Part shown: positions 21,767 through 41,879 of the stretch, in pieces
Numbering within the stretch: the first letter of the stretch is position 1
How the letters are laid out: each line of letters begins with the position of its first letter
NCBI GenBank assembly: GCA_038064495.1
Contig: JBBTSZ010000002.1
Span: 82,035 to 146,034 of the forward strand
Direction of reading: 5' to 3'
DNA length: 64,000 nt
Origin: Patescibacteria group bacterium
GTDB lineage: Bacteria > Patescibacteriota > Minisyncoccia > Phycocordibacterales > Phycocordibacteraceae
Notes under the pieces: generated by a model
What the model saw: the letters and a program-made list of their open reading frames with translations, nothing else
Told to the model about the DNA's origin: nothing
Database searches by the model: none
Position numbers and translations under genes: made by a program

Positions 21767-22150
21767 ATGGAAACAAAAACAATCGCAACTATAGCCGTTG
21801 CTCTCATTATCGGGCTGGGTGGCGGATACATACTTGCCGGGAATAGGTCTCCGGACACGGATGAGCACATGATGAGCAACGGCATGATGATGCATAACGA
21901 TTCAATGGGAATGGGTGGGGCTATGGATGAGATGATGCAGGGACTTTCGGGGAAGACTGGCGACGCGTTCGATAAGGCGTTCCTTTCGGAAATGATTATG
22001 CATCATGAAGGAGCGGTGGTTATGGCAGAAGCCGCTCTACAAAACGCCAAACACGAGGAGATAAAGACTATGGCGAACGCTATCATCTCAGCGCAAACTA
22101 TAGAGATACAGCAAATGAAGGATTGGCAGAAGTCCTGGTACGGAAATTAG
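21767..22150 (+). CDS. DUF305 family protein with Met-rich segment (putative copper-binding)
   Basis: FDKAFLSEMIMHHEGAVVMAEA (DUF305 signature by recall); MMSNGMMMHNDSMGMGGAMDEMM Met-rich tract; N-terminal TM. Confidence 0.55.
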   Translation: METKTIATIAVALIIGLGGGYILAGNRSPDTDEHMMSNGMMMHNDSMGMGGAMDEMMQGLSGKTGDAFDKAFLSEMIMHHEGAVVMAEAALQNAKHEEIKTMANAIISAQTIEIQQMKDWQKSWYGN

Positions 22151-22167
22151 AGCGCTCCTTGCAATAG

Positions 22168-22196
22168 AAAAAACCGCCACGCAGGCGGTTTTTTCT
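22168..22196. terminator. bidirectional terminator (DUF305 gene / tmRNA 3-prime end)
   Basis: AAAAAACCGCC-ACGCA-GGCGGTTTTTT. Confidence 0.6.
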
Positions 22197-22209
22197 ATTG
22201 TTCTCTATC

Positions 22210-22618
22210 GGTGGAGGTGCGGGGGATTGAACCCCGGTCCGAATCTCTCTTTGAGAACGAGTCTACGACGCATAGTTAGCATTGAAGTTTCAGCAGAAGC
22301 ATAAGAACGCTAACAAAAACGCTTCTACCTAGTCCTTAGTTTTCAGTCGTTCGTGTAGGAGCACGAGAACCTATTCCGTAGAATATTCCGCCCAGCTCAT
22401 CCGCTACGAAAACCGGAGTGAGTGAACGTCGCTTTGGCGAAAGCGCGGGGCTTTTACGCGAAAGCGAACGCAAAGTCCTTGCTACCGAAGTATGGGGACT
22501 TTACGCTTGCAACAGTTGTGTTGGCAAGTTTAGGTGTATGCCAGATTTAGGTGGTGAGCATACTTCCACCGCGTCGCACGTTTCTCAAAGAACGAGACCG
22601 TCAAAGCCAGTCACCCCC
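22210..22618 (-). ncRNA. ssrA: tmRNA (SsrA)
   Basis: 5-prime GGGGGTGACTGGCTTTGACGG resembles canonical GGGGCUGAUUCUGGAUUCGACGG; 3-prime T-arm GGGGTTCAATCCCCC + acceptor CACCTCC-A-CC; 7-bp acceptor with G3:U70 alanine determinant; candidate tag ORF GSKDFAFAFA-stop (about 22454..22486). Confidence 0.85.
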
Positions 22619-22717
22619 AGTCCCGACTCTATCAGGAGATGGAGTCGGGACGGGGAACGGCTCGCAGAATGAATATCTGAAAGTGTGGGCAACCGAAGTT
22701 GCCCGAGTGGTTGAAGA

Positions 22718-22942
22718 TTAACGGAAAAGCTTGTCGAGTGGAATAGGATCGCCATCATCGGAAGCTTCTTCGTCAGCGAAACGTGCTTCATCATCGTCGA
22801 GCCCGTTATCGGCAGGATCATCATCAAGATCCCGAGATTCAAGTCCGTGTTGACGGACTATCCGCTCCCGTACGCTTACCTGGTCTTCGTCAACGATACG
22901 CAACTCCTCGTTCACTGGCTGACTGTGCTGGTTTCGTCTCAT
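22718..22942 (-). CDS. small highly acidic hypothetical protein between smpB and ssrA
   Basis: 74 aa, D/E-rich; AAGGAG upstream; same strand as smpB. Confidence 0.35.
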   Translation of the reverse strand: MRRNQHSQPVNEELRIVDEDQVSVRERIVRQHGLESRDLDDDPADNGLDDDEARFADEEASDDGDPIPLDKLFR

Positions 22943-22984
22943 TCCTGTTCTCCTTCGTTACCACTTTCAGATATTCATTCTCAA

Positions 22985-23437
22985 TTAACGTTTCTGTTTT
23001 AGCGCACGGTCTATCTCCCGCTTGGCATCTTTCAACTTCAAGTCTTCTCGCTTGTCAGCCTTATTCTTACCTTGCACGATAGCAATACGCGCCTTCAGAT
23101 ATCTCCCAGCATTATACAACTCAAGTGGCACTACAGTCAAGCCCTTCTTAGATTCTGCATCAGCAAGCTGGGCAATTTCTTTTTTATTCAACAAAAGACG
23201 CCGGGTTTTTTCGGGATCATATCCCTTCTCCGTATTTGCCATTTGGTAGGGGGGAATGGTGGCACCGACGAGATAGGCCTCGCCAGCGCGAACCACCACA
23301 CGAGCACCCTCAAGACTCCCAAGTTTTGCTCGGAGTGCCTTTACCTCACCACCAGAAAGCTCAAGGCCAGCAGAAAAGGTTTCCAGTATGGAAAAGCGCA
23401 GCGTCACTTTTTTGTTTTCAATCAATGTCGCAGACAT
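22985..23437 (-). CDS. smpB: SsrA-binding protein SmpB
   Basis: 150 aa; NKKA..Y.ILE..EAGL.L.G.EVKS-like N-term and basic C-tail. Confidence 0.9.
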   Translation of the reverse strand: MSATLIENKKVTLRFSILETFSAGLELSGGEVKALRAKLGSLEGARVVVRAGEAYLVGATIPPYQMANTEKGYDPEKTRRLLLNKKEIAQLADAESKKGLTVVPLELYNAGRYLKARIAIVQGKNKADKREDLKLKDAKREIDRALKQKR

Positions 23438-23506: not shown

Positions 23507-25477
23507 ATGGCTCACAATACGACACCACCAAAGAAGGAGCAGAAGACGCCCGTAAAAGGCCCACAGAAGGGAAAACAGGCGAATAAAAGTAAGGGCCTCA
23601 TGCCAGGAGGTCCGGGCTTTATGGGCAATCTCTTGTCCACCATTCTCATGCTTCTCTTGGTAATTAGTCTGTATTCACTCATTACGACTGCGAGCGAAAA
23701 TAAGACGACGATACCACTTTCGCAGATAGCGCAGGACGTCAAAGCAGGAACCATTTCCACCATTACAATTTCCGGAAACGAACTCACGCTTACGTACACG
23801 GACGGTGCAAAGAAAACATCCGTGAAAGATGCGGCAACCGGACTACCAGAAACACTCGCGACCTACGGCGTGACCCCCGAACAGTTAAGCTTCGTAGCCA
23901 TCTCCATAGAAGGAGAGACCGGATTTAAATTCTGGTTCCTTTCACTTGCTCCAATCATTCTTCCGATTATCTTCCTCGCGTTTTTGTTCTGGTTCCTCAC
24001 CCGCCAGGTGCGTGGTGCTGGTATGCAGGCCTTTACCTTTGGCCAGTCCAAAGCACGAATGACGGACCCTGCAGACACTTCACAGCGCGTTACCTTCGGG
24101 GATGTTGCTGGAGCAAAGGAAGCAAAGGAAGAGCTCATGGAGATTGTGGACTTCCTTAAAAATCCGAAGAAGTTTTTGGATATCGGTGCACGCATTCCGA
24201 AGGGCATTCTGCTGATGGGCGCGCCCGGAACGGGAAAGACACTCCTCGCACGTGCGGTTGCAGGAGAGGCAGGCGTTCCGTTCTTCTCTATTAGTGGCTC
24301 CGAGTTTGTGGAAATGTTTGTGGGCGTGGGTGCATCACGTGTACGTGACCTTTTCCAACTCGCGAAGCGTTCCGCTCCGGCCATCATCTTTGTGGACGAG
24401 ATTGACGCGGTGGGACGCGTGCGTGGTACGGGTGTGGGTGGTGGAAATGATGAACGTGAGCAAACGTTGAACCAAATTCTCGTTGAGATGGATGGGTTTG
24501 ACCCAACCGAAAAAGTGATTGTGATGGCAGCAACAAACCGTCCTGACGTGCTTGACCCAGCACTTCTTCGTCCTGGTCGTTTTGACCGCCGCGTGACGAT
24601 TGACCTGCCGGACCGTAAAGACCGTCTTGAGATTCTTGCCGTACATGCTCGTAAGAAGCCGTTTGGACCTGACGTAGACCTTGAGGTGATTGCAGAGCGC
24701 ACCCCAGGATTTTCCGGCGCTGAACTCTACTCACTTATGAACGAAGGAGCGATTCTTGCTGCTCGTGAAAACCGAAAGGAAATTACCCAGTACGACCTCA
24801 TCCGCTCTATTGAGAAAGTGATGCTTGGACCGGAACGTAAGAGTCACCTGTTCTCAAAGAAAGAGAAAGAACTCACCGCGTATCACGAAGGTGGCCACGC
24901 ACTCGTCTCATCCATTCTTCCGGATGCTGACCCCGTGCATAAGATTTCTATCATCAGCCGCGGACGCGCTGGTGGTTATACGCTCAAGCTCCCGTTTGAG
25001 GATAAAAAAATGCACACAAGGAAGTCATTCCTTGATGACATCGCAGCTACGCTCGGTGGTTACGTTGCGGAGGAAATGGTGTATGGCGACATCACCACTG
25101 GTCCAAGTAATGACCTTGCGGTCGTCACCGCACTCGCTCAAGACATGGTGGCTCGTTACGGTATGTCAGACGTGATTGGTCCCGTCGCGTTTTCTGCCGA
25201 CCGTGGACTTGGTCACGAGGCCTATTCTCCAGCCATTGCAGGAAAGATTGATACAGAAGTGACGCGCATCATCGAAGAGGCACGAGTACGAGCCCGTGAA
25301 GTGCTTGAAAAGCATCGCGGTGCCCTTAACGCCATTGCAAAGAAACTCGTAGAAGTGGAGACGCTCGAGCGCGAAGAATTTGAGAAACTCTTGATTGCAA
25401 ACGGCATCACGCCGAAATCAAAAGAAGTGGAAGGAGTTGATATCGTAAACAACCTCATCCCACCTACAGAGGGATAG
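23507..25477 (+). CDS. ftsH: ATP-dependent zinc metalloprotease FtsH
   Basis: two TM, AAA Walker [19 protein letters not shown] zinc site. Confidence 0.95.
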
Positions 25478-25560: not shown

Positions 25561-25637
25561 GCATCCATAGCTCAGTTGGTTAGAGCACGGAGCTTATACC
25601 TCCGCGGTCCCTGGTTCGAGTCCAGGTGGATGCACCA
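25561..25637 (+). tRNA. tRNA-Ile (anticodon UAU)
   Basis: cloverleaf by hand: acceptor GCATCCA/TGGATGC, D-arm TAGCTCAGTTGGTTAGAGC, anticodon stem CGGAG/CTCCG loop CTTATAC, T-arm CCTGG-TTCGAGT-CCAGG, CCA encoded. Confidence 0.8.
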
Positions 25638-33982: not shown

Positions 33983-34741
33983 CTAATAACTGAGGGCAAG
34001 CAGGTGCACGTCTTTCGCTCCCGTATCGCGAAGTGCCTGTTCAGCTGCTCGTAGCGTCGCTCCCGTCGTTACGACATCGTCAATAAGGATATACGTAACA
34101 TGCGCATCAAGCGGACCGTTCGCTCGGAAGGCACCTTCCATGTTCACTAACCGCTCTGCTCGGTTGAGGCGCGTCTGGGGTTTAGTGTCCCGGACTCGCT
34201 CAAGCACGCCATACTTGATAGGTACCGGAAGGCTATTCTGTTTTTCAAATAACCGCTCTACTTGGTTGTATCCACGCTCTCGCTCTCGCAGGGCGGAAAG
34301 CGGAATTGGTAATAGAACATAGGAGTTTGTTTCAAAACCACTCTCGTCCTCAACCAACCCTTCAAGATAATCGTGAAGGACTTGAGCGAGTAACACTCGT
34401 GCTCGCTCACTATCCTTAAATTTCAGCTCAGTAATCAGTGCACGCACAAGACTATGACGGTAGGGGAGGAGTGCAGTTATGTGAGAAGAATCTACTGAAA
34501 CGATGCGTGGCGAGACCAATTGAGAAAGTTGCTCCAAGGTTGCTTTCTCAACCAAAGCCTCATGGCTCTTTGGTGGGAACACCAGACGAATAAGCTGTGT
34601 GAGTAGGAATCGGAGGACATCCATACCATTCATACTATCGCGTCGTCCCTGCGCCCGTACTTCTTGAGATGTGGGGTGATACAATGACGCTATGAGTTTA
34701 TTCGAGACACTCTTCGGCAAGAAGAAGAGCAAGAGCGTCAT
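33983..34741 (-). CDS. comFC: ComF family protein (ComFC, phosphoribosyltransferase domain)
   Basis: C-terminal PRTase motif LIDDVVTTGATL. Confidence 0.7.
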   Translation of the reverse strand: MTLLLFFLPKSVSNKLIASLYHPTSQEVRAQGRRDSMNGMDVLRFLLTQLIRLVFPPKSHEALVEKATLEQLSQLVSPRIVSVDSSHITALLPYRHSLVRALITELKFKDSERARVLLAQVLHDYLEGLVEDESGFETNSYVLLPIPLSALRERERGYNQVERLFEKQNSLPVPIKYGVLERVRDTKPQTRLNRAERLVNMEGAFRANGPLDAHVTYILIDDVVTTGATLRAAEQALRDTGAKDVHLLALSY

Positions 34742-35780
34742 CGGTGTTGATGTCGGTTCGTCATCACTGAAAGTCGTTCAAATTCGGGAGGAGGACGGTA
34801 CTGCGGTGCTTGAAACATATGGAGAACTTGCCCTCGGACCCTATGCAGGTGCAGAAGTGGGGCAGGCAACAAATCTTCCAGCTGCAAAGATTGCAGAAAC
34901 CCTCACTGACCTACTTCGTGAAGCTTCCGTCACTACCACAGAGGCAGGGGTCTCTATTCCGTTCTCTCGCTCCCTCCTCACTCTGGTAGAACTTCCGCGC
35001 AGAGACGATGCGAATGAACAAAAAACCGTTATTGAACTAGAAGCTCGCAAGTATATTCCCGTGCCGGTCTCTGAGGTCCAACTAGACTGGTTCATTTTGC
35101 CGGAGGCTTTACCTGAGAATGCCGAACCACCTCAAAAAGTGAAGGTACTTCTTGTTGCGGTGCATAATGACGAACTCGCACTTCTTGAAAACGTGGTGAA
35201 AGGAGCCGGTCTTGCTGCAAGTTTTTATGAAATAGAGATATTTAGCACGATTCGTTCCGTCGTGGATGAGCCCGTGAAGCCAGTACTCGTACTTGATATC
35301 GGAGCTTCTGCCACAAAAGTGTATGTTGTAGAACGAGGTGTGGTTGCACTTTCTCACAATATTCCCGAGGGAGGACAAGACGTTACACGCACCATTTCAA
35401 CCGCGCATAATCTTTCGATAAAGAAGGCTGAATCCCTCAAGAAAGAGCACGGGTTTCAGAATCAACCTGCTAATGGCTACACACTTGCAACTATTGAACT
35501 CGTTTTCTCACGTATTTTTCAAGAAGCGAAACGAGCTATTACTCAGTACGAAACCGCGCACCAAAAGACTATCTCTGAGATTATTCTCACCGGAGGTGGG
35601 GGAGTCACGAAAGAGCTGGTGACCTATGCACAGTCCTTCTTCTCCATTGACGTAAAAGTTGCCGATCCATTTGGTAAGACACAAGCACCTGAATTCATGC
35701 GCCCAGTACTTGCAGAAATTGGCCCGGAATTTGCGGTTGCGGTAGGACTTGCACTCCGCAAGCTCCAAGAGCTTGAGTAG
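34692..35780 (+). CDS. pilM: type IV pilus assembly protein PilM
   Basis: actin-like ATPase fold pattern, VIGVDVGSSSLKVV N-term. Confidence 0.8.
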   Translation: MSLFETLFGKKKSKSVIGVDVGSSSLKVVQIREEDGTAVLETYGELALGPYAGAEVGQATNLPAAKIAETLTDLLREASVTTTEAGVSIPFSRSLLTLVELPRRDDANEQKTVIELEARKYIPVPVSEVQLDWFILPEALPENAEPPQKVKVLLVAVHNDELALLENVVKGAGLAASFYEIEIFSTIRSVVDEPVKPVLVLDIGASATKVYVVERGVVALSHNIPEGGQDVTRTISTAHNLSIKKAESLKKEHGFQNQPANGYTLATIELVFSRIFQEAKRAITQYETAHQKTISEIILTGGGGVTKELVTYAQSFFSIDVKVADPFGKTQAPEFMRPVLAEIGPEFAVAVGLALRKLQELE

Positions 35781-35841
35781 CACACTCATCTCATGTGTAT
35801 AAACCTCATGTTTCTCTAAAGTCTTTCGGTATACTTCATTT

Positions 35842-36495
35842 GTGGCACTTCCTCCTACTATTCCGACATCGTTTGTACCAAAGATGCCTGTTTCGCCAAC
35901 TGCGCGCAGGAAATCTTCGGGTCCAAACCCATTTCTTACACTTGCTTCCGTTGTGCTTGCTATTTCCCTTCTCGGCGCTGCCGGCATGTTCGCCTACCAG
36001 TATTACCTTGAAGGCGTCGCAAAGAGCAAGGGAGCACAGTTAGTAAAGGCACAAAACGATATTGACCAAGCAACGGTAACCGGGTTCATTCGTTTGCGCG
36101 ATCGCTTTACCGTCTCACAACAAATATTAAGTAATCACGTGACTTTGTCAGCTTTTTTTGATGTTCTTGAATCACTCACCCTTGCAACGGTTAAGTTCTC
36201 TTCACTCAAAGTCACCCTATCTGAAAGTCATGTGGCAACCATAGAAATGAACGGTGTCGCAAGAAGTTTTAATGCACTCGCTGCACAGTCAAACGCTTTT
36301 TCAGATGAAAAACGCATTAAGCGTGCTATTTTCTCAGGGATCACGCTTGATCAAAAATCTGGGAACGTATCCTTCAGTTTGAAGGCAGAACTTGATCCTG
36401 CACTTATCGTCAATAATGCCAACCCTGTTGCGGGCACGGTACTGGTACCGCAAACACAACCACAAATCCCCCTTGCTACCTCCACCACACCATGA
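35842..36495 (+). CDS. pilN: PilN-like pilus assembly protein
   Basis: single TM then coiled coil; position after pilM. Confidence 0.6.
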   Translation: MALPPTIPTSFVPKMPVSPTARRKSSGPNPFLTLASVVLAISLLGAAGMFAYQYYLEGVAKSKGAQLVKAQNDIDQATVTGFIRLRDRFTVSQQILSNHVTLSAFFDVLESLTLATVKFSSLKVTLSESHVATIEMNGVARSFNALAAQSNAFSDEKRIKRAIFSGITLDQKSGNVSFSLKAELDPALIVNNANPVAGTVLVPQTQPQIPLATSTTP

Positions 36496-37055
36496 TTAAT
36501 CGACTCTTACCGGTTATAGTACTCATTATCGCGATTGCCATCTTCGTTGGATATACGAATCCGTTGTATACGCGAGAGATTCTCCCGCTCCAAGCGCAAG
36601 TTCGAGAGTATGATGGTGCACTTGCGGCAGCAGCTGACTTCAATAGAAAGGAGGCACAACTCGCGACCGAGCGAGCCGCTATTCCAGCAGAAAGCATTCA
36701 GAAGATTGAAACCTTCCTACCGGATGGCGTGGACAATGTGCAGTTGATTCTTGACTTGAATGCACTGGCGGCACGCTCAGGAGTACAGCTCTCAAACTTT
36801 GATGTTAAAGAAAATGGTGTTGTAGCTCAAAATGAGCCACAAAGTGGAGGCATTGCCCTTGAGCAGGGAGGTAAGCAAACAGACTCACTAGATCTTTCTG
36901 TAAAAGCAACGGCTTCGTATTCAGCATTTCGGACCTTCCTTGCGGGAGCCGAACAAAGCCTGCGTATTCTTGACGTGACTCAGCTTGATGTGAGCGATTC
37001 ACCGACCGGTGTTTACAGCTATGCTATTACTTTTAGAATCTATTGGCTCCACTAA
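36492..37055 (+). CDS. pilO: PilO-like pilus assembly protein
   Basis: N-term TM + coiled coil + alpha/beta domain; synteny. Confidence 0.55.
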   Translation: MINRLLPVIVLIIAIAIFVGYTNPLYTREILPLQAQVREYDGALAAAADFNRKEAQLATERAAIPAESIQKIETFLPDGVDNVQLILDLNALAARSGVQLSNFDVKENGVVAQNEPQSGGIALEQGGKQTDSLDLSVKATASYSAFRTFLAGAEQSLRILDVTQLDVSDSPTGVYSYAITFRIYWLH

Positions 37056-37059
37056 TTGT

Positions 37060-37344
37060 ATGAGTAAAAACACCATCATCTCCATCATCATCGGCGTCGC
37101 CATTTTGCTTGTCGCTGGCTACATGCTTTTTTTTCAGCAGCCAGCCTCCTCAGCTGTAACAGCAACCGAAGCTTCAAGTGAAGCCGAAGTGACGTTTGTT
37201 AACCTCGCCGCACAACTTGAACCCCTTGGATTTGATACGAGCATTCTTGCTATCCCTCGTTTCCTAGAACTTGTGGACATCCATACCATCGTTCTTCCTG
37301 AGGTAAGTGGTCGTAAAGACCCCTTTGCTCCACTTCCAAAATAA
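37060..37344 (+). CDS. small membrane-anchored protein (PilP-like position)
   Basis: MSKNTIISIIIGVAILLVAGY TM; synteny only. Confidence 0.4.
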   Translation: MSKNTIISIIIGVAILLVAGYMLFFQQPASSAVTATEASSEAEVTFVNLAAQLEPLGFDTSILAIPRFLELVDIHTIVLPEVSGRKDPFAPLPK

Positions 37345-37437
37345 ATAATTTATCCCGTGCAAACTATCGCACGAATACGCACTGAGGGAGTATCATACAT
37401 ACATGATGCCTGCGGTTAGAAATCGCACCACGAGTCT

Positions 37438-39216
37438 ATGAATATACTTTCTCTCCTTATTGAGAAGGGTCTCATTAAAGCTGAGGATGTAGCAGCAATT
37501 CAGGCTGAGGCTGAACAAAAGAAGCTTCCACTCGAAAGCGTACTTGAAAGTAAGGGTGTTACACGCGACGTACAACTCTCAACTGCAAGTGAGCACTATG
37601 GGATTCCATCTCGAGTGCTTCCGCAAAACAAAGATATTGAACAAGCGGCACTTGAGTTTATTCCTCAGGAATCAGCTGAACACTATCGGTTTGTGCCACT
37701 TGGCATTGTAGACGGGGCACTTGAAGTGGGTATTACTGACCCCGATAACATAGAGGCGCGTGACGCACTTCAATTTATCTCAACACGTGCGGGCATGCCC
37801 TATAAGTTGTTCCTTATTAGTGAAAATGACTTCTCACACGTGATTGAAGAGTATCAAAACCTCTCGGGAGTTGTGGGTGAAGCACTTTCAGAATTTGAAG
37901 GTTCAGCCGCTGAGTCTGAAGAGTCTAAGAAGATGGAGGCTGAGGTTGAGTCAGCAGCCATAGGTGCGCCAGCAGCGGTAGGTGCTGATGGAAAGATTAA
38001 AGCCGACTCGCCGGTAACAAAGATTGTCGCAACCGCCTTGCGATATGCGGTAGAGGGTGGTGCATCCGACATCCACATAGAACCATCTCCTGGAAAGACG
38101 CGCGTACGTTTCCGCATGGATGGTGAGTTACACACCTCACTCGAACTTCCGGCTAAAGTACATGCTGCCGTTGTGGCTCGTATTAAAATCATGGCGCAGC
38201 TTAGGCTTGATGAAAAACGTAAGCCACAGGACGGACGGTTCTCTTCAAAAGTAGATAATCGGCTCATAGACTTCCGTGTCTCCACATTTCCAACGCAACA
38301 CGGCGAGAAAGTGGTAATGCGTATTCTGGACCGCACCCGCTCGGTAGCAAATATTGAAGCCATTGGTTTTACCGAAGACCAGCTTGCCATGGTGAAAGAA
38401 ATATTGAAGGTACCGTACGGTATTGTGCTCATCTGTGGTCCAACTGGTTCAGGTAAGTCAACCACTCTCTTCGGTATGTTGTCGGAGATTGATAGTGAAA
38501 AACAAAACGTAGTTTCCATTGAAGACCCCGTTGAGTACGAGATTCCAGGTATCGCACAGTCGCAAGTACACCCAGAGATTGGTTATGACTTCGCAAACGG
38601 GCTCCGTTCCATTTTGCGTCAGGACCCCGACGTCATCATGGTTGGCGAGATTCGTGATAAAGAAACAGCCCAGCTTGCAATTCAGGCTGCGCTCACGGGT
38701 CACCTCGTGTTCTCTACGATTCACACCAACAACACCGCGGGCGTCATTCCACGCCTCATTGATATGGGCGTGGACCCGTATTTGATTGCACCAACTCTCG
38801 TGGCCGCCATCGGCCAGCGTCTGGTGCGTAAGCTCTGTCCAGGCGCTGGGCAGAAAATCGCGGTCACCGACAGTATCAAGGGTCTTCTTGAGCGAGAATT
38901 TGCGGACCTTCCTCCTGACGCAATGAAAAGGATACCTGCATTTGAGTCAATGTATCGTGCTCAGGCGACTCCAGACTGTCCAAATGGTACTCGTGGACGT
39001 ATTGGCGTGTTTGAGTTCATGCGCATGGATAAGGACCTAGAACACACGGTACTAACGAATCCCGTGGAAGAGGCGGTATACGCGGTTGCTCGTAAAAAGG
39101 GTATGTTTACGATGCGCGAGGATGCTATCATGAAAGCGCTGGCGGGGGAGATTCCGTTTGAAGAAGTGAATACGCTTGGCGGTGAATTGTTCCCCGAGGA
39201 AGAAGAATCAATCTAA
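37438..39216 (+). CDS. pilB: type IV pilus assembly ATPase PilB (GspE family)
   Basis: GSPII_E N domain, Walker A GPTGSGKST, Asp/His boxes, CxxC...CPxC-like zinc motif. Confidence 0.9.
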   Translation: MNILSLLIEKGLIKAEDVAAIQAEAEQKKLPLESVLESKGVTRDVQLSTASEHYGIPSRVLPQNKDIEQAALEFIPQESAEHYRFVPLGIVDGALEVGITDPDNIEARDALQFISTRAGMPYKLFLISENDFSHVIEEYQNLSGVVGEALSEFEGSAAESEESKKMEAEVESAAIGAPAAVGADGKIKADSPVTKIVATALRYAVEGGASDIHIEPSPGKTRVRFRMDGELHTSLELPAKVHAAVVARIKIMAQLRLDEKRKPQDGRFSSKVDNRLIDFRVSTFPTQHGEKVVMRILDRTRSVANIEAIGFTEDQLAMVKEILKVPYGIVLICGPTGSGKSTTLFGMLSEIDSEKQNVVSIEDPVEYEIPGIAQSQVHPEIGYDFANGLRSILRQDPDVIMVGEIRDKETAQLAIQAALTGHLVFSTIHTNNTAGVIPRLIDMGVDPYLIAPTLVAAIGQRLVRKLCPGAGQKIAVTDSIKGLLEREFADLPPDAMKRIPAFESMYRAQATPDCPNGTRGRIGVFEFMRMDKDLEHTVLTNPVEEAVYAVARKKGMFTMREDAIMKALAGEIPFEEVNTLGGELFPEEEESI

Positions 39217-39222
39217 CACTTT

Positions 39223-39606
39223 ATGGCTACGTACCGCTTATACCTTGTCGACGATGACCGCTTCTTACTGGATATGTATGCTGTTAAATTCAAGACAGCA
39301 GGTCATGAAGTAACTGCATTTCAAAATGGCGAAGAGTTACTGGAGTCTCTCAAGAAAGATCCAGCTCCTGACGCACTTCTTCTGGATATCGTTATGCCAA
39401 ATCTCGACGGATTTGAGATTCTTGAGCGTATCCGGAAAGACGCTCTTGCCCAAACGACAAAAGTTATCGTGCTCTCAAACCAAGGTCAACAATCAGATAT
39501 CGAGCGCGCACAAAAGCTTGGTGCTGCAGGGTATATTATTAAAGCATCCGCAATTCCAAGTGAAGTATTTGCAGAGACTATTCGCATTATTGAAGCAAAA
39601 GCATGA
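39223..39606 (+). CDS. single-domain response regulator (PilH-like position)
   Basis: receiver domain DD..D..T..K pattern. Confidence 0.75.
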   Translation: MATYRLYLVDDDRFLLDMYAVKFKTAGHEVTAFQNGEELLESLKKDPAPDALLLDIVMPNLDGFEILERIRKDALAQTTKVIVLSNQGQQSDIERAQKLGAAGYIIKASAIPSEVFAETIRIIEAKA

Positions 39607-40667
39607 GCACCTCTTCCAAAAGCGTAAAACCACTTCTCTCAACTGTTGTTGCAGAGGGTGGGTCTGACCTCCACCTGTCGGTAGGGAGCCACCCCATTAT
39701 TCGCGTGTCTGGTTCGCTCGTGCCTTTGGTGCAGGAGCCTATTTTGACACTGGCTGACACGGAAGCAATGCTGAAAGAAATCCTTCCTGAAGGGAGGTGG
39801 GAAGTGTTTGTGCGTGACCAGGCAGTGGACTTTTCGTATGCTCACGACGACAATAACCGTTTTCGTATCAACGGGTACATTGTGCAGGGAGCAGTCACTG
39901 TTGCCATGCGTCTCATCCCACACGCAATTCGTACCTTTACTGATTTGAATCTTCCGCCGGTACTTGAAATCTTTACTCAGAAGACCCAGGGCTTCTTCCT
40001 CGTGGTAGGTCCTGTGGGACAAGGAAAGTCAACGACGCTTGCTACCATCATTGACCGTATTAACGAGACGCGCGCCGAGCATATCGTCACGATTGAAGAT
40101 CCGGTTGAGTACCTCTTTGAACAAAAGAAGTCCCTCATTCATCAGCGTGAAGTACACATTGATACCCCTGACTTCCATGCGGCTCTCCAGTCAGCCTTTC
40201 GTGAGGATGTGAACGTCATTATGGTGGGTGAAATGCGTGATCAAGAGACCATTTCAAGTGCGGTGACTGCTGCTGAGACAGGACACCTTGTGCTCTCTAC
40301 CCTGCACACGAACAATGCGGCCCAGACCATTGACCGTATTATTGATATGTTCCCACCGAATCAACAGAGCCAGGTACGCGTACAGCTTGCCGGTTCTCTT
40401 GCGGGAATCTTCTCTCAACGACTTGTGCCACGAATTGCCGGTGGTCTCATCCCTGCATACGAATTGTTAATCAACAACAGCGCCATCGCAAACCTTATTC
40501 GTGAAGGACGCACGCATGAAATTTCCACAGTCGTACAAACGAGTTCTCAAGAAGGCATGATTGACATGGACCGTTCTCTCGCAGAGCTCGTTCGTCGCGG
40601 TGAAGTCACGATTGAACATGCATACGAACGTTCGGTAGACCCCAAGACCTTTGAGCGTTACCTCTAA
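39603..40667 (+). CDS. pilT: twitching motility ATPase PilT
   Basis: Walker A GPVGQGKST, 354 aa, AIRNLIRE motif. Confidence 0.9.
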   Translation: MSTSSKSVKPLLSTVVAEGGSDLHLSVGSHPIIRVSGSLVPLVQEPILTLADTEAMLKEILPEGRWEVFVRDQAVDFSYAHDDNNRFRINGYIVQGAVTVAMRLIPHAIRTFTDLNLPPVLEIFTQKTQGFFLVVGPVGQGKSTTLATIIDRINETRAEHIVTIEDPVEYLFEQKKSLIHQREVHIDTPDFHAALQSAFREDVNVIMVGEMRDQETISSAVTAAETGHLVLSTLHTNNAAQTIDRIIDMFPPNQQSQVRVQLAGSLAGIFSQRLVPRIAGGLIPAYELLINNSAIANLIREGRTHEISTVVQTSSQEGMIDMDRSLAELVRRGEVTIEHAYERSVDPKTFERYL

Positions 40668-40670
40668 CCC

Positions 40671-41879
40671 ATGCTATTCAAATACAACGCACTGGATACA
40701 GACGGACACGAGCGGCAAGGAAGTGTCGAGGCACTCTCTATGGATGTTGCAGTTTCAACCCTGCAACGACGGAACCTCATCGTTTCCTCCATAGAGCCCA
40801 TGGAGAAGAAGTCAAAACTGGAAATAGAGTTTAGTTTTCTTAAAGGAGTCTCAAACAAGGAAATCGTTATTCTTTCACGCCAGATTGCAACGCTGTTTGA
40901 AGCCCAAGTCTCGGCACTTCGTGTATTTCGTCTCCTTTCTGCAGAAGTTGAGAACAAGTATTTAAGTGAGATATTGACGCAAGTCTCAGACGATCTCCAG
41001 GGAGGTAGCCCTATCTCAAAAGCGCTCTCACGCCACCCGAAAGCTTTTCAAGCCTTTTACGTAAATATGGTAAAGGCAGGTGAGGAGTCAGGAAAACTCT
41101 CTGAAACCTTCGGCTATCTTGCCGACTATCTTGACCGTAACTACGAGGTAGCAAGCAAAGCCCAGAGTGCCCTTATTTATCCAGCGTTCGTTATTGGCGT
41201 CTTTATTACGGTCATGAGCTTGATGCTCACGCTCGTTATCCCGAAGATTAGTGCTATTCTCATCGACTCAGGCCAAAAGATTCCGCTCTATACTCAAATT
41301 GTAGTGAGTCTCTCTGACTTCATAGTCCATTATGGTGGATTTATCCTTATTGCTTTTGTTATCTTTGGCTTCTACTGCTATCGAGCAATGCAAACAGAGT
41401 CAGGTCGTCTCATGTTCGACAGTATCAAACTAGATACACCCTACATTGGAGACCTGTATCAAAAACTCTATCTTTCTCGTATTTCGGATAACTTTGCCAC
41501 GATGCTTGTATCTGGCGTGCCGGTAGTTGAAGCAGTAGAAATTACCGCAGCCGTTGTTGACAGCCCTATTTATGAAGGAATTTTGCGACAGGTGGGAGAA
41601 GACGTGAAAGGAGGAGCATCTATCTCTGACGCGCTTGCTCGGCACAAGGAGATTCCCGGTATTATGAGTGCCATGGTTCGTGTGGGGGAGGAAACGGGAG
41701 AGCTTGGTAAAATCCTTGCAACACTCGCTCACTTCTACCAGCGTGAAGTAACAAACGCCGTGGACACACTCGTGGACTTGATTGAACCACTCATGATTGT
41801 CATTCTCGGACTTGGTGTTGGTATCTTGCTTGCGGCAGTTCTCGTGCCTATCTATAATCTCGCCGGTTCTATCTCCTAA
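40671..41879 (+). CDS. pilC: type IV pilus platform protein PilC (GspF family)
   Basis: two T2SSF repeats, 3 TM. Confidence 0.9.
   Translation: MLFKYNALDTDGHERQGSVEALSMDVAVSTLQRRNLIVSSIEPMEKKSKLEIEFSFLKGVSNKEIVILSRQIATLFEAQVSALRVFRLLSAEVENKYLSEILTQVSDDLQGGSPISKALSRHPKAFQAFYVNMVKAGEESGKLSETFGYLADYLDRNYEVASKAQSALIYPAFVIGVFITVMSLMLTLVIPKISAILIDSGQKIPLYTQIVVSLSDFIVHYGGFILIAFVIFGFYCYRAMQTESGRLMFDSIKLDTPYIGDLYQKLYLSRISDNFATMLVSGVPVVEAVEITAAVVDSPIYEGILRQVGEDVKGGASISDALARHKEIPGIMSAMVRVGEETGELGKILATLAHFYQREVTNAVDTLVDLIEPLMIVILGLGVGILLAAVLVPIYNLAGSIS

Follow-up and report, generated by a model that had tools for sequence, protein, structure and literature searches.

What is a gene for a small, strongly acidic protein doing between smpB and ssrA, the gene for transfer-messenger RNA (tmRNA)? 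On the minus strand of the Patescibacteria DNA analysed here, a stretch of 64,000 nucleotides of contig JBBTSZ010000002.1 (hereafter the window), smpB is followed by a 74-codon open reading frame (ORF) rich in Asp and Glu codons at 22718-22942, and then by ssrA. A preliminary description, made from the letters alone, had given this order and called the intervening acidic protein unusual, and on both counts it was right: the ORF belongs to a rare module bounded by inverted repeats, which is absent from most relatives, has homologues beside smpB at the same site in three lineages, and is under purifying selection in those lineages. The gene is real and rare and is part of a structured insert. 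We favour, with a probability of roughly 70%, the reading that it is an accessory micro-gene inserted into the smpB/pre-tmRNA transcript and insulated there by a long-range RNA helix.

An inverted-repeat-bounded micro-gene behind the smpB stop codon

The smpB gene of the window (22985-23437; features lie on the minus strand unless marked otherwise) encodes a 150-amino-acid (aa) protein that matches the Pfam SmpB family (PF01668, E = 5.6e-42), and an identical 150-aa protein carries the NCBI name SsrA-binding protein SmpB. From its stop codon to the first nucleotide of the tmRNA (G1) the gap measures 366 nt. In related loci, which are labelled Paceibacteria or Parcubacteria and are cited here by L numbers, this gap is 43-56 nt (L001, L003, L008, L102-L105, L109-L112), 21 nt (L006), or 88-154 nt with neither arm of the inverted repeat nor an ORF (L002, L004, L007). 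The module in the window, about 320 nt long, separates the smpB stop codon from a pre-tmRNA leader of the normal 47 nt, and consists in order of a 20-nt arm, a Shine-Dalgarno sequence, the 74-codon gene, a small hairpin and a complementary 20-nt arm. Specifically, the 5′ arm of the inverted repeat, AGAAUGAAUAUCUGAAAGUG (22962-22981), begins 3 nt past the smpB stop codon; the Shine-Dalgarno sequence AAGGAG (22950-22955) stands 7 nt before the ATG of the micro-gene, whose product ends in PLDKLFR; and the hairpin, which we call P2 (GGGCAAC-UUCG-GUUGCCC, 22687-22704), is followed after one base by the 3′ arm, CACUUUCAGAUAUUCAUUCU (22666-22685). A comparison of spacers shows that the arm is followed by a conserved box, GCGAGCCGUUCCCC (22652-22665), which in module-less relatives stands directly behind the smpB stop codon. 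A hairpin at the position of P2 is also present in L005, with a UUCG-containing loop, and in L093, with 22-nt arms that are 86% complementary.

The insertion site can be read from the relatives. Excising 316 nt (22666-22981) leaves a 50-nt spacer with GCGAGCCGTTCCC... right behind the stop codon, as in the relatives, and the empty site of L109 (TAG followed by CGAGCCGTTCCC) has the sequence that follows the 3′ arm in the window. L109 is syntenic with the window, sharing the response regulator and CHASE4 kinase downstream. The module is missing from at least 15 related loci, or about 14 lineages, since L103 and L104 carry the same SmpB protein. A targeted full-text literature search turned up no publication about an ORF lying between smpB and ssrA.

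Three lineages carry homologues of the micro-gene, all at this site and in one orientation: A (the window and L107), B (L093, L106, L085 and L108) and C (L005). L085 and L093 were found by an exact 20-mer search of metagenome contigs, and L106, L108 and L107 by cluster look-ups and contig retrieval. Both L085 and L093 have the full architecture, namely the 5′ arm, AAGGAGG, a GTG start, a 64-codon acidic ORF, a hairpin, the 3′ arm, a leader hairpin and the tmRNA; in L093 the AAGGAGG lies 5 nt ahead of the GTG. The L005 ORF has 65 codons between 18-bp arms and ends in PLDKQFR. The encoded proteins (window, MRRNQHSQPVNEELRIVDEDQVSVRERIVRQHGLESRDLDDDPADNGLDDDEARFADEEASDDGDPIPLDKLFR; L093, MAEYEEDLDEEFPNPDAMGNGCYIIRTTRRPGRDDDPADYYMDDRDHDFAPQGSEIMALDKLFR; L005, MKKSKVTGIPEHEKSPADLQGEGIIQFEPSTGSWSAPHIESSSDDETDDLYADEDGPQPLDKQFR) are 33-36% identical to one another, have net charges of -9 to -13 and end in related motifs, PLDK(L/Q)FR in lineages A and C and LD(K/Q)LF(R/K) in B. 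The window's version has 23 Asp and Glu residues among its 74, a net charge of -13 and an isoelectric point of 4.2, and proteins identical to it and to its SmpB are recorded in a Patescibacteria metagenome-assembled genome and in Hainich groundwater assemblies.

Several measurements speak for translation. The ORFs of L085 and L093 differ at 13 synonymous and 9 non-synonymous codons, giving non-synonymous and synonymous rates of dN 0.065 and dS 0.495 and a ratio (dN/dS) of 0.13; in lineage A, the window and L107 give a dN/dS of 0.21. Three lineages whose nucleotide sequences can no longer be aligned have all retained 64-74 open codons behind a Shine-Dalgarno sequence. From these patterns of substitution we conclude that the acidic ORF is a real gene under purifying selection. 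A very unlikely alternative is that the ORF is untranslated and its frame accidental, the insert serving solely as a structured RNA leader or small RNA. The strong predicted structure of the insert (z scores of -5 to -7) would suit it, as would a protein that is predicted to be disordered and has no homologue of known function, but the excess of synonymous changes goes well beyond the neutral expectation, the frame and its Shine-Dalgarno sequence have been kept in all three lineages, and every version shares net acidity and a related C-terminal motif.

The micro-protein matches nothing in Pfam, PHROGs, NCBIfam, PADLOC or PDB sequences. A word-indexed search of 5.8 billion proteins returned the protein itself and lineage B only, and an exhaustive HMMER search of 1.84 billion representatives yielded nothing but P0001 and P0002, from lineages A and B, and one weak match, a 23-residue stretch of an 869-aa protein (E = 6.7e-4) that looks like low-complexity noise. 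Since the HMMER profile missed the L005 protein, which is present in that collection, the family is probably under-sampled and more divergent members may exist. At E ≤ 5, Rfam gave only sub-threshold microRNA and C/D-box matches on the module, which trace to the hairpin and to the GAUGAUGA Asp codons. AlphaFold2 models the micro-protein mostly as coil, with confidence peaking at the C-terminus; a predicted local distance difference test score (pLDDT) of 62.7 and a predicted template modelling score (pTM) of 0.16 were too poor for a fold search. A disordered protein with a short docking motif would fit this model, which is itself no evidence for one.

The inverted repeat at 22666-22685 and 22962-22981 is perfect over 20 nt (100% complementary) with 276 nt between its arms, and would form a long-range helix, P1. 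The arm occurs twice in the window against 0.01 occurrences expected by chance, and the 64-kb window holds no further copy with up to 3 mismatches allowed. P1 is present in both the minimum free energy and the centroid folds of the window (z = -5.1) and of L093 (z = -7.0), and in each the fold also shows P2 beside the 3′ arm and a further hairpin, P3, beside the tmRNA. Its predicted length is 20 bp in the window; L093 has 23 bp and L005 18 bp. Behind the smpB stop codon, the 20-mer of the 5′ arm is identical in L085, L093, L106, L108 and L107, and lacks one base in L005. The 3′ arm of lineages B and C differs from that of the window at two positions, the only mismatches there, which give G·U and U·G pairs in the sense RNA; their equivalents on the antisense strand would be A·C mismatches. 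These two pairing-preserving changes lend modest support to a helix at the RNA level. Between L093 and L085, not one of the 46 arm nucleotides differs, nor any of the 22 in the Shine-Dalgarno region, against a divergence of 30% in the segment from the stop codon to P2, 12% in the ORF and 3.4% in the tmRNA. By this comparison both arms are much more conserved than neutral sites. We also considered pairing of the arm with the tmRNA body, for which L005 offers an 11-nt match, and rejected it; RNAduplex energies equalled those of shuffled arms.

A separate insert was seen at the same junction in L004 (4438-4548), where an unrelated perfect 19-bp inverted repeat (GCGCGGAGAGGGCCGTCCC and its complement) begins at the smpB stop codon and encloses 73 nt with no ORF; a 44-nt spacer remains before the tmRNA. 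Judged by its sequence, it is a second, independent insert at the smpB-ssrA site with a predicted closing helix.

How the module may act and where it may have come from

In the reading that we favour, the locus is the trans-translation operon of a Paceibacteria genome, and the module would be transcribed within smpB read-through RNA, and possibly also within a pre-tmRNA that starts from a promoter-like site inside smpB. Pairing of the P1 arms in this RNA would extrude the insert as a loop and bring the stop codon, spacer box, P3 and tmRNA back into their native arrangement. P1 is predicted as a long-range duplex of about two helical turns, as expected of a stalk-like RNase III target, and RNase III-type cleavage of its 20 bp would free a small mRNA with paired ends, leaving the pre-tmRNA for 5′ maturation by RNase P. 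The module would have been gained laterally at a fixed site in the lineage of the window. More speculatively, the C-terminal peptide of the micro-protein could act on a partner in ribosome rescue or in proteolysis of tagged proteins, for example SmpB or the adjacently encoded FtsH.

Several points weigh against this reading. We infer co-transcription, formation of P1 in vivo and RNase III cleavage alike from sequence, and no rnc gene was found among the window ORFs scanned, the scan covering part of the window and no search having been made beyond it. The G·U argument concerns two positions, and we put the probability that a pair of random substitutions would both keep pairing at about 0.03-0.1. 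The 5′ arm is identical in lineages A and B, whose ORFs are about 35% identical, and this implies a sequence-specific constraint beyond pairing, for which an insulating helix offers no explanation. As to the direction of evolution, either at least two gains at one site or many precise losses are possible. The micro-protein has no homologue of known function and its structural model is of low confidence (pLDDT 62.7, pTM 0.16), and what ties it to trans-translation is its position.

A bolder proposal can be built on the same observations, namely that some members of the candidate phyla radiation (CPR) possess a new accessory of trans-translation: an acidic, disordered micro-protein encoded in the leader would be released by processing at the helix, its conserved C-terminal PLDKxFR motif would dock on SmpB, tmRNA-SmpB, FtsH or Lon to tune rescue or the fate of tagged proteins, and the module would spread laterally to a fixed site behind the smpB stop codon. 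We consider this unlikely as it stands. If the micro-protein did act on SmpB, tmRNA or tag proteolysis, ribosome rescue in bacteria with a minimal proteostasis machinery would gain a new regulator.

Among the rival accounts, the one that survives best concerns history: the module may be ancestral to the smpB-ssrA operon of this family and have been precisely lost many times, rather than laterally gained. In a neighbour-joining tree of SmpB, lineages B and C are sisters, which would agree with inheritance, and the 33-36% identity among the three ORF versions implies a long history; selection on the 43-56-nt spacer, if there is any, could filter out imprecise deletions. Against this, the window nests among non-carriers in the same tree and its syntenic relative L109 has an empty site, the related loci without the module (at least 15, about 14 lineages) are clean of arm remnants, and no flanking direct repeats are present to drive precise excision. 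Four further relatives, picked because the C-termini of their SmpB proteins resemble that of the window, all lack the module. Taken together, we hold ancestry with repeated loss to be possible, if doubtful. A specific route of gain was also examined and set aside. Four residues resembling those of lineage B cluster in the last 35 residues of the window's SmpB, which would suggest homologous recombination with a lineage-B donor; because the same C-terminal tail is found in P0020/L109 and in other proteins from loci without the module, we rejected the cluster as evidence.

The second rival takes the module for DNA rather than RNA: a miniature inverted-repeat transposable element (MITE), with the 20-bp repeats as terminal inverted repeats for a transposase acting in trans and the ORF as a passenger or an accident. 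Several features are those of such an element, since the perfect repeats end exactly at the boundaries of the insertion, the arms have kept their sequence though the interior has diverged, as expected of transposase binding sites, the distribution is patchy with the window nesting among non-carriers, and L004 has another inverted-repeat-bounded insert at the same spot. The junctions themselves (TAATTG/AGAATG...CATTCT/GCGAGCC) tell otherwise, as they show no target-site duplication or direct repeat, and the same is true in L093 and L005. There is one copy in 64 kb, no transposase among the window ORFs scanned, and no match to the module in plasmid or phage collections. In scans of metagenome and viral contigs the only related matches adjoin smpB, with site and orientation unchanged; most exact 20-mer matches there are chance, several of them falling in one phage-like gene family. 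Finally, purifying selection acts on the ORF, and the mismatches between the arms are of the G·U kind on just one of the two strands. We therefore judge a transposon of this type improbable.

It is barely credible that the micro-protein is an ArfA/BrfA-type rescue factor whose amount trans-translation would control by way of RNase III acting on its mRNA. A small ORF beside ssrA and a duplex of RNase III-substrate size in its mRNA recall such factors, and regulation of this kind is known for ArfA, but the known Arf/Brf factors are basic, with a positively charged C-terminal tail that is placed in the mRNA channel, and this protein has a net charge of -9 to -13. Cleavage of P1 would also not yield a non-stop message, because the helix encloses the whole ORF including its stop codon, and the protein resembles no NCBIfam or Pfam model.

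The tmRNA gene, its tag and its surroundings

The gene next to the module is an ordinary one, a canonical one-piece tmRNA and a further member of a known family. It spans 410 nt (22209-22618) and matches Rfam RF00023 over the full model (positions 1-374 of 374, not truncated) with 105.3 bits against a gathering threshold of 47 (E = 4e-40). The identification in the preliminary description, including the quoted ends, is borne out: the termini 5′ GGGGGUGACUGGCUUUGACGG and 3′ GGGGUUCAAUCCCCCGCACCUCCACC are in the sequence, and the acceptor stem GGGGGUG x CACCUCC pairs as G1-C, G2-C, G3·U, G4-C, G5-C, U6-A and G7-C. Both the G3·U70 alanine identity pair and the T-arm, GGGGUUCAAUCCCC, can be placed in the sequence and in the RF00023 alignment. 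The 3′ end is encoded as ...CACCUCCACC (...CCACC), with G as the next base (22209-22211), where L093 has ...CCACUA; the terminal A of the CCA is thus not encoded and must be added post-transcriptionally. In the RF00023 alignment several helices contain non-standard pairs; as regards the pseudoknots PK1-PK4, the Rfam structure line covers nested helices only. On the opposite strand, an 84-aa ORF (22418-22672, (+)) in the ORF list overlaps the Rfam match and is spurious, because it is antisense to the tmRNA and its leader hairpin, as had been pointed out.

In the covariance-model alignment the resume codon is GCC (22525-22523, gene position 94), so that the tag, ANTTVASVKSPYFGSKDFAFAFA, comprises 23 codons and ends in ...FAFAFA before a TAA stop (22456-22454; whole frame 22454-22525). 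This is a different resume codon and a different tag from the 10-residue GSKDFAFAFA proposed at first, of which the frame, the C-terminus and the stop stand as the last 10 of the 23 residues and the start does not. Resumption at GGU, with the same frame and stop codon, is almost certainly wrong, as the model places the resume codon 13 codons further upstream, ARAGORN starts the tags of L001-L003 at the homologous GCN (gene position 93-94), those first 13 codons are kept as a peptide among relatives (AN(K/T)T.AS.KSPYF), and in the great majority of known tmRNAs the resume codon encodes alanine.

The tags of relatives were taken from ARAGORN (L001, ANTTVASAKSIVSRYFTPSDFAFA; L002, ADKTVAGAKVSPYFTAKNFAFAYV; L003, ANKTASVKSPYFGTADLAFAFA) and by manual extraction (L107, ANKTVASVKSPYFGGRDFAFAFA; L093, AKNSLASVKSPYFGKSDFAFATA; L102, ANKTASTKSPYFAVNDFVFAYA; L103, ANKTVASVKSPYMGNLAFAFA; L105, ANKNVASIPSPYASKLGMFAFA; L112, AKNTLASVKSPYFGMKDFAFSYA), and those resembling the window's tag include the ARAGORN form ANTTVASAKS...DFAFA. 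The reading frame is conserved among them, and they are 21-24 aa long and end in ...FAFA, ...FAFAFA, ...FAYA, ...FSYA or ...FATA. The FAFA-stop ending, in place of the common ALAA, is therefore present as described and is not peculiar to the window; given the shared length and type of ending, a long aromatic/Ala-ended tag is the norm for this Paceibacteria clade.

The two search programs disagree on this gene. Rfam finds it; ARAGORN reports no tmRNA in the window, even with lowered thresholds or after CCG-to-CCA and ACTGG-to-ACCGG changes. Chimeras with the L003 tmRNA, which ARAGORN detects, narrow the cause down to some 30 nt surrounding the resume codon and show that the miss lies in how the program locates the tag start, not in a defect of the gene or its tRNA-like domain; one chimera yields ...GSKDFAFAFA* in the window's tag frame. 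ARAGORN also misses the tmRNA in L004, L006, L007 and L008, which together with the window score 75-105 bits with Rfam. Annotation by ARAGORN alone will under-call tmRNA in this clade, where the Rfam model finds the genes.

Immediately upstream of the tmRNA, RNAfold analysis of 14 taxa shows the leader hairpin P3 (22620-22651), which in the window has a 10-bp stem and an apical loop with UCUCCUGA. It ends 0-1 nt before G1, with one base in the window, and the spacer that contains it is mostly 43-56 nt. In ten loci from nine lineages, the window and L107 being counted as one lineage, the stem is perfect over 10-15 bp and wholly different in sequence, and the loop UCUCCUGA is conserved; stems that differ completely yet stay perfect amount to many compensatory changes. 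The hairpin is found in the window, L001, L002, L003, L005, L093, L102, L103, L105, L107 and L109-L112, for the last four by inspection of the sequence. L004 and L006-L008 have weaker or different hairpins at this position. The loop contains CUCCU, which resembles an anti-Shine-Dalgarno sequence, and candidate roles for P3 are a processing signal, a context element for RNase P, or a protein-binding site.

Within smpB, a promoter scan found TTGACT-N18-TATAAT (23111-23140), which matches the sigma-70 consensus at 11 of 12 positions and overlaps the sequence for the SmpB motif GLTVVPLELYN; in relatives that lack the module it precedes the tmRNA by about 170 nt. The site is kept as TTGAC(A/T)-N18-TA(T/C)A(A/C)T in all 16 loci where it was sought (the window and 15 others), and the codons between the hexamers vary at synonymous sites; in L093 the hexamers are perfect (TTGACA-N18-TATAAT). 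The site is a candidate promoter for ssrA, covering leader and tmRNA. Together, the promoter-like site inside smpB, the covarying leader hairpin and a spacer that is nearly constant in length among most relatives suggest how ssrA of Paceibacteria may be expressed and matured.

At the other end, an inverted repeat search found a perfect 17-bp stem between A and T runs (22162-22200, on either strand), 9 nt past the tmRNA 3′ end and 12 nt past a convergent DUF305 gene (21767-22150, (+)); it is probably a bidirectional terminator. The N-terminal segment of the DUF305 protein, MMSNGMMMHNDSMGMGGAMDEMM, is rich in Met and His. Its gene and two small genes without known function separate ssrA from the response-regulator/CHASE4-kinase pair in the window; syntenic L109 has no called gene in that interval.

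On the far side, ftsH (23507-25477, (+)) is divergent from smpB. It also adjoins smpB in L102, L109, L110, L111, L112 and the contig of P0025. FtsH is the sole AAA+ protease among 26 window proteins with Pfam results, 25 of them scanned against Pfam and FtsH itself identified from precomputed Pfam domain matches on an identical contig. Next to ftsH lies a tRNA-Ile gene with anticodon TAT (25561-25637, (+)), as in L001-L004 and L008, and the order tRNA-Ile(TAT), ftsH, smpB, ssrA is kept in relatives, the orientation of the tRNA relative to smpB being variable. Isoleucine tRNAs with a UAU anticodon are uncommon in bacteria, where AUA is usually read by a lysidine-modified CAU tRNA. Farther away, at 34692-41879 (+), the window carries a type IV pilus cluster with PilM, a PilB-like ATPase and a PilC-like platform protein, which is typical of CPR genomes and is relevant here only as a possible route of DNA uptake for lateral gain of the module.

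Relation to known systems

With RF00023 tmRNA and SmpB, the locus shares the full-length model match, the G3·U pair, the T-arm, an alanine resume codon, an in-frame tag with stop and a co-oriented adjacent smpB; it differs in that the gene is 410 nt long against a consensus of 374 positions, with a 23-aa tag, in that the terminal A of CCA is not encoded, and in that ARAGORN does not detect it.

The tag recalls those of mycoplasmas, which end in ...YAFA or FAFA. Mycoplasma pneumoniae has no ClpXP, and its tmRNA adds a 27-residue tag to proteins that are degraded mainly via Lon (PMC8403727); long mycoplasma ssrA tags are recognised by Lon according to Gur & Sauer 2008 as cited in PMC8403727. In both cases genome-reduced bacteria use tags of more than 20 residues with aromatic/Ala endings. 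The window tag is otherwise unrelated in sequence, and here only FtsH, encoded beside smpB, was seen among the 26 window proteins scanned.

For the module itself, three comparisons can be made. In its size of about 320 bp, perfect terminal inverted repeats and patchy distribution it resembles MITEs, from which it differs in being single-copy, always at the same site and in the same orientation, free of a target-site duplication, and in carrying a gene under purifying selection. With arfA of E. coli, which encodes a product under tmRNA control from an mRNA that RNase III cuts, it shares a small ORF, a predicted duplex of RNase III size and a neighbourhood of trans-translation; in contrast to arfA, there is no sequence similarity, the micro-protein is acidic rather than basic, and the duplex encloses the ORF instead of truncating it. 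The third likeness is to the processing stalks of 16S and 23S rRNA that are cut by RNase III, where the flanks of a functional unit in a stable-RNA precursor likewise pair over about 20 bp and so come to lie side by side. What the predicted helix of the window encloses is a protein-coding micro-gene in a pre-tmRNA leader, and its arms are conserved rather than covarying. The module, which recurs at one exact site in unrelated sub-lineages, places a protein-coding gene inside the leader of a stable-RNA precursor, between the two strands of a predicted helix that apparently neutralises the insertion.

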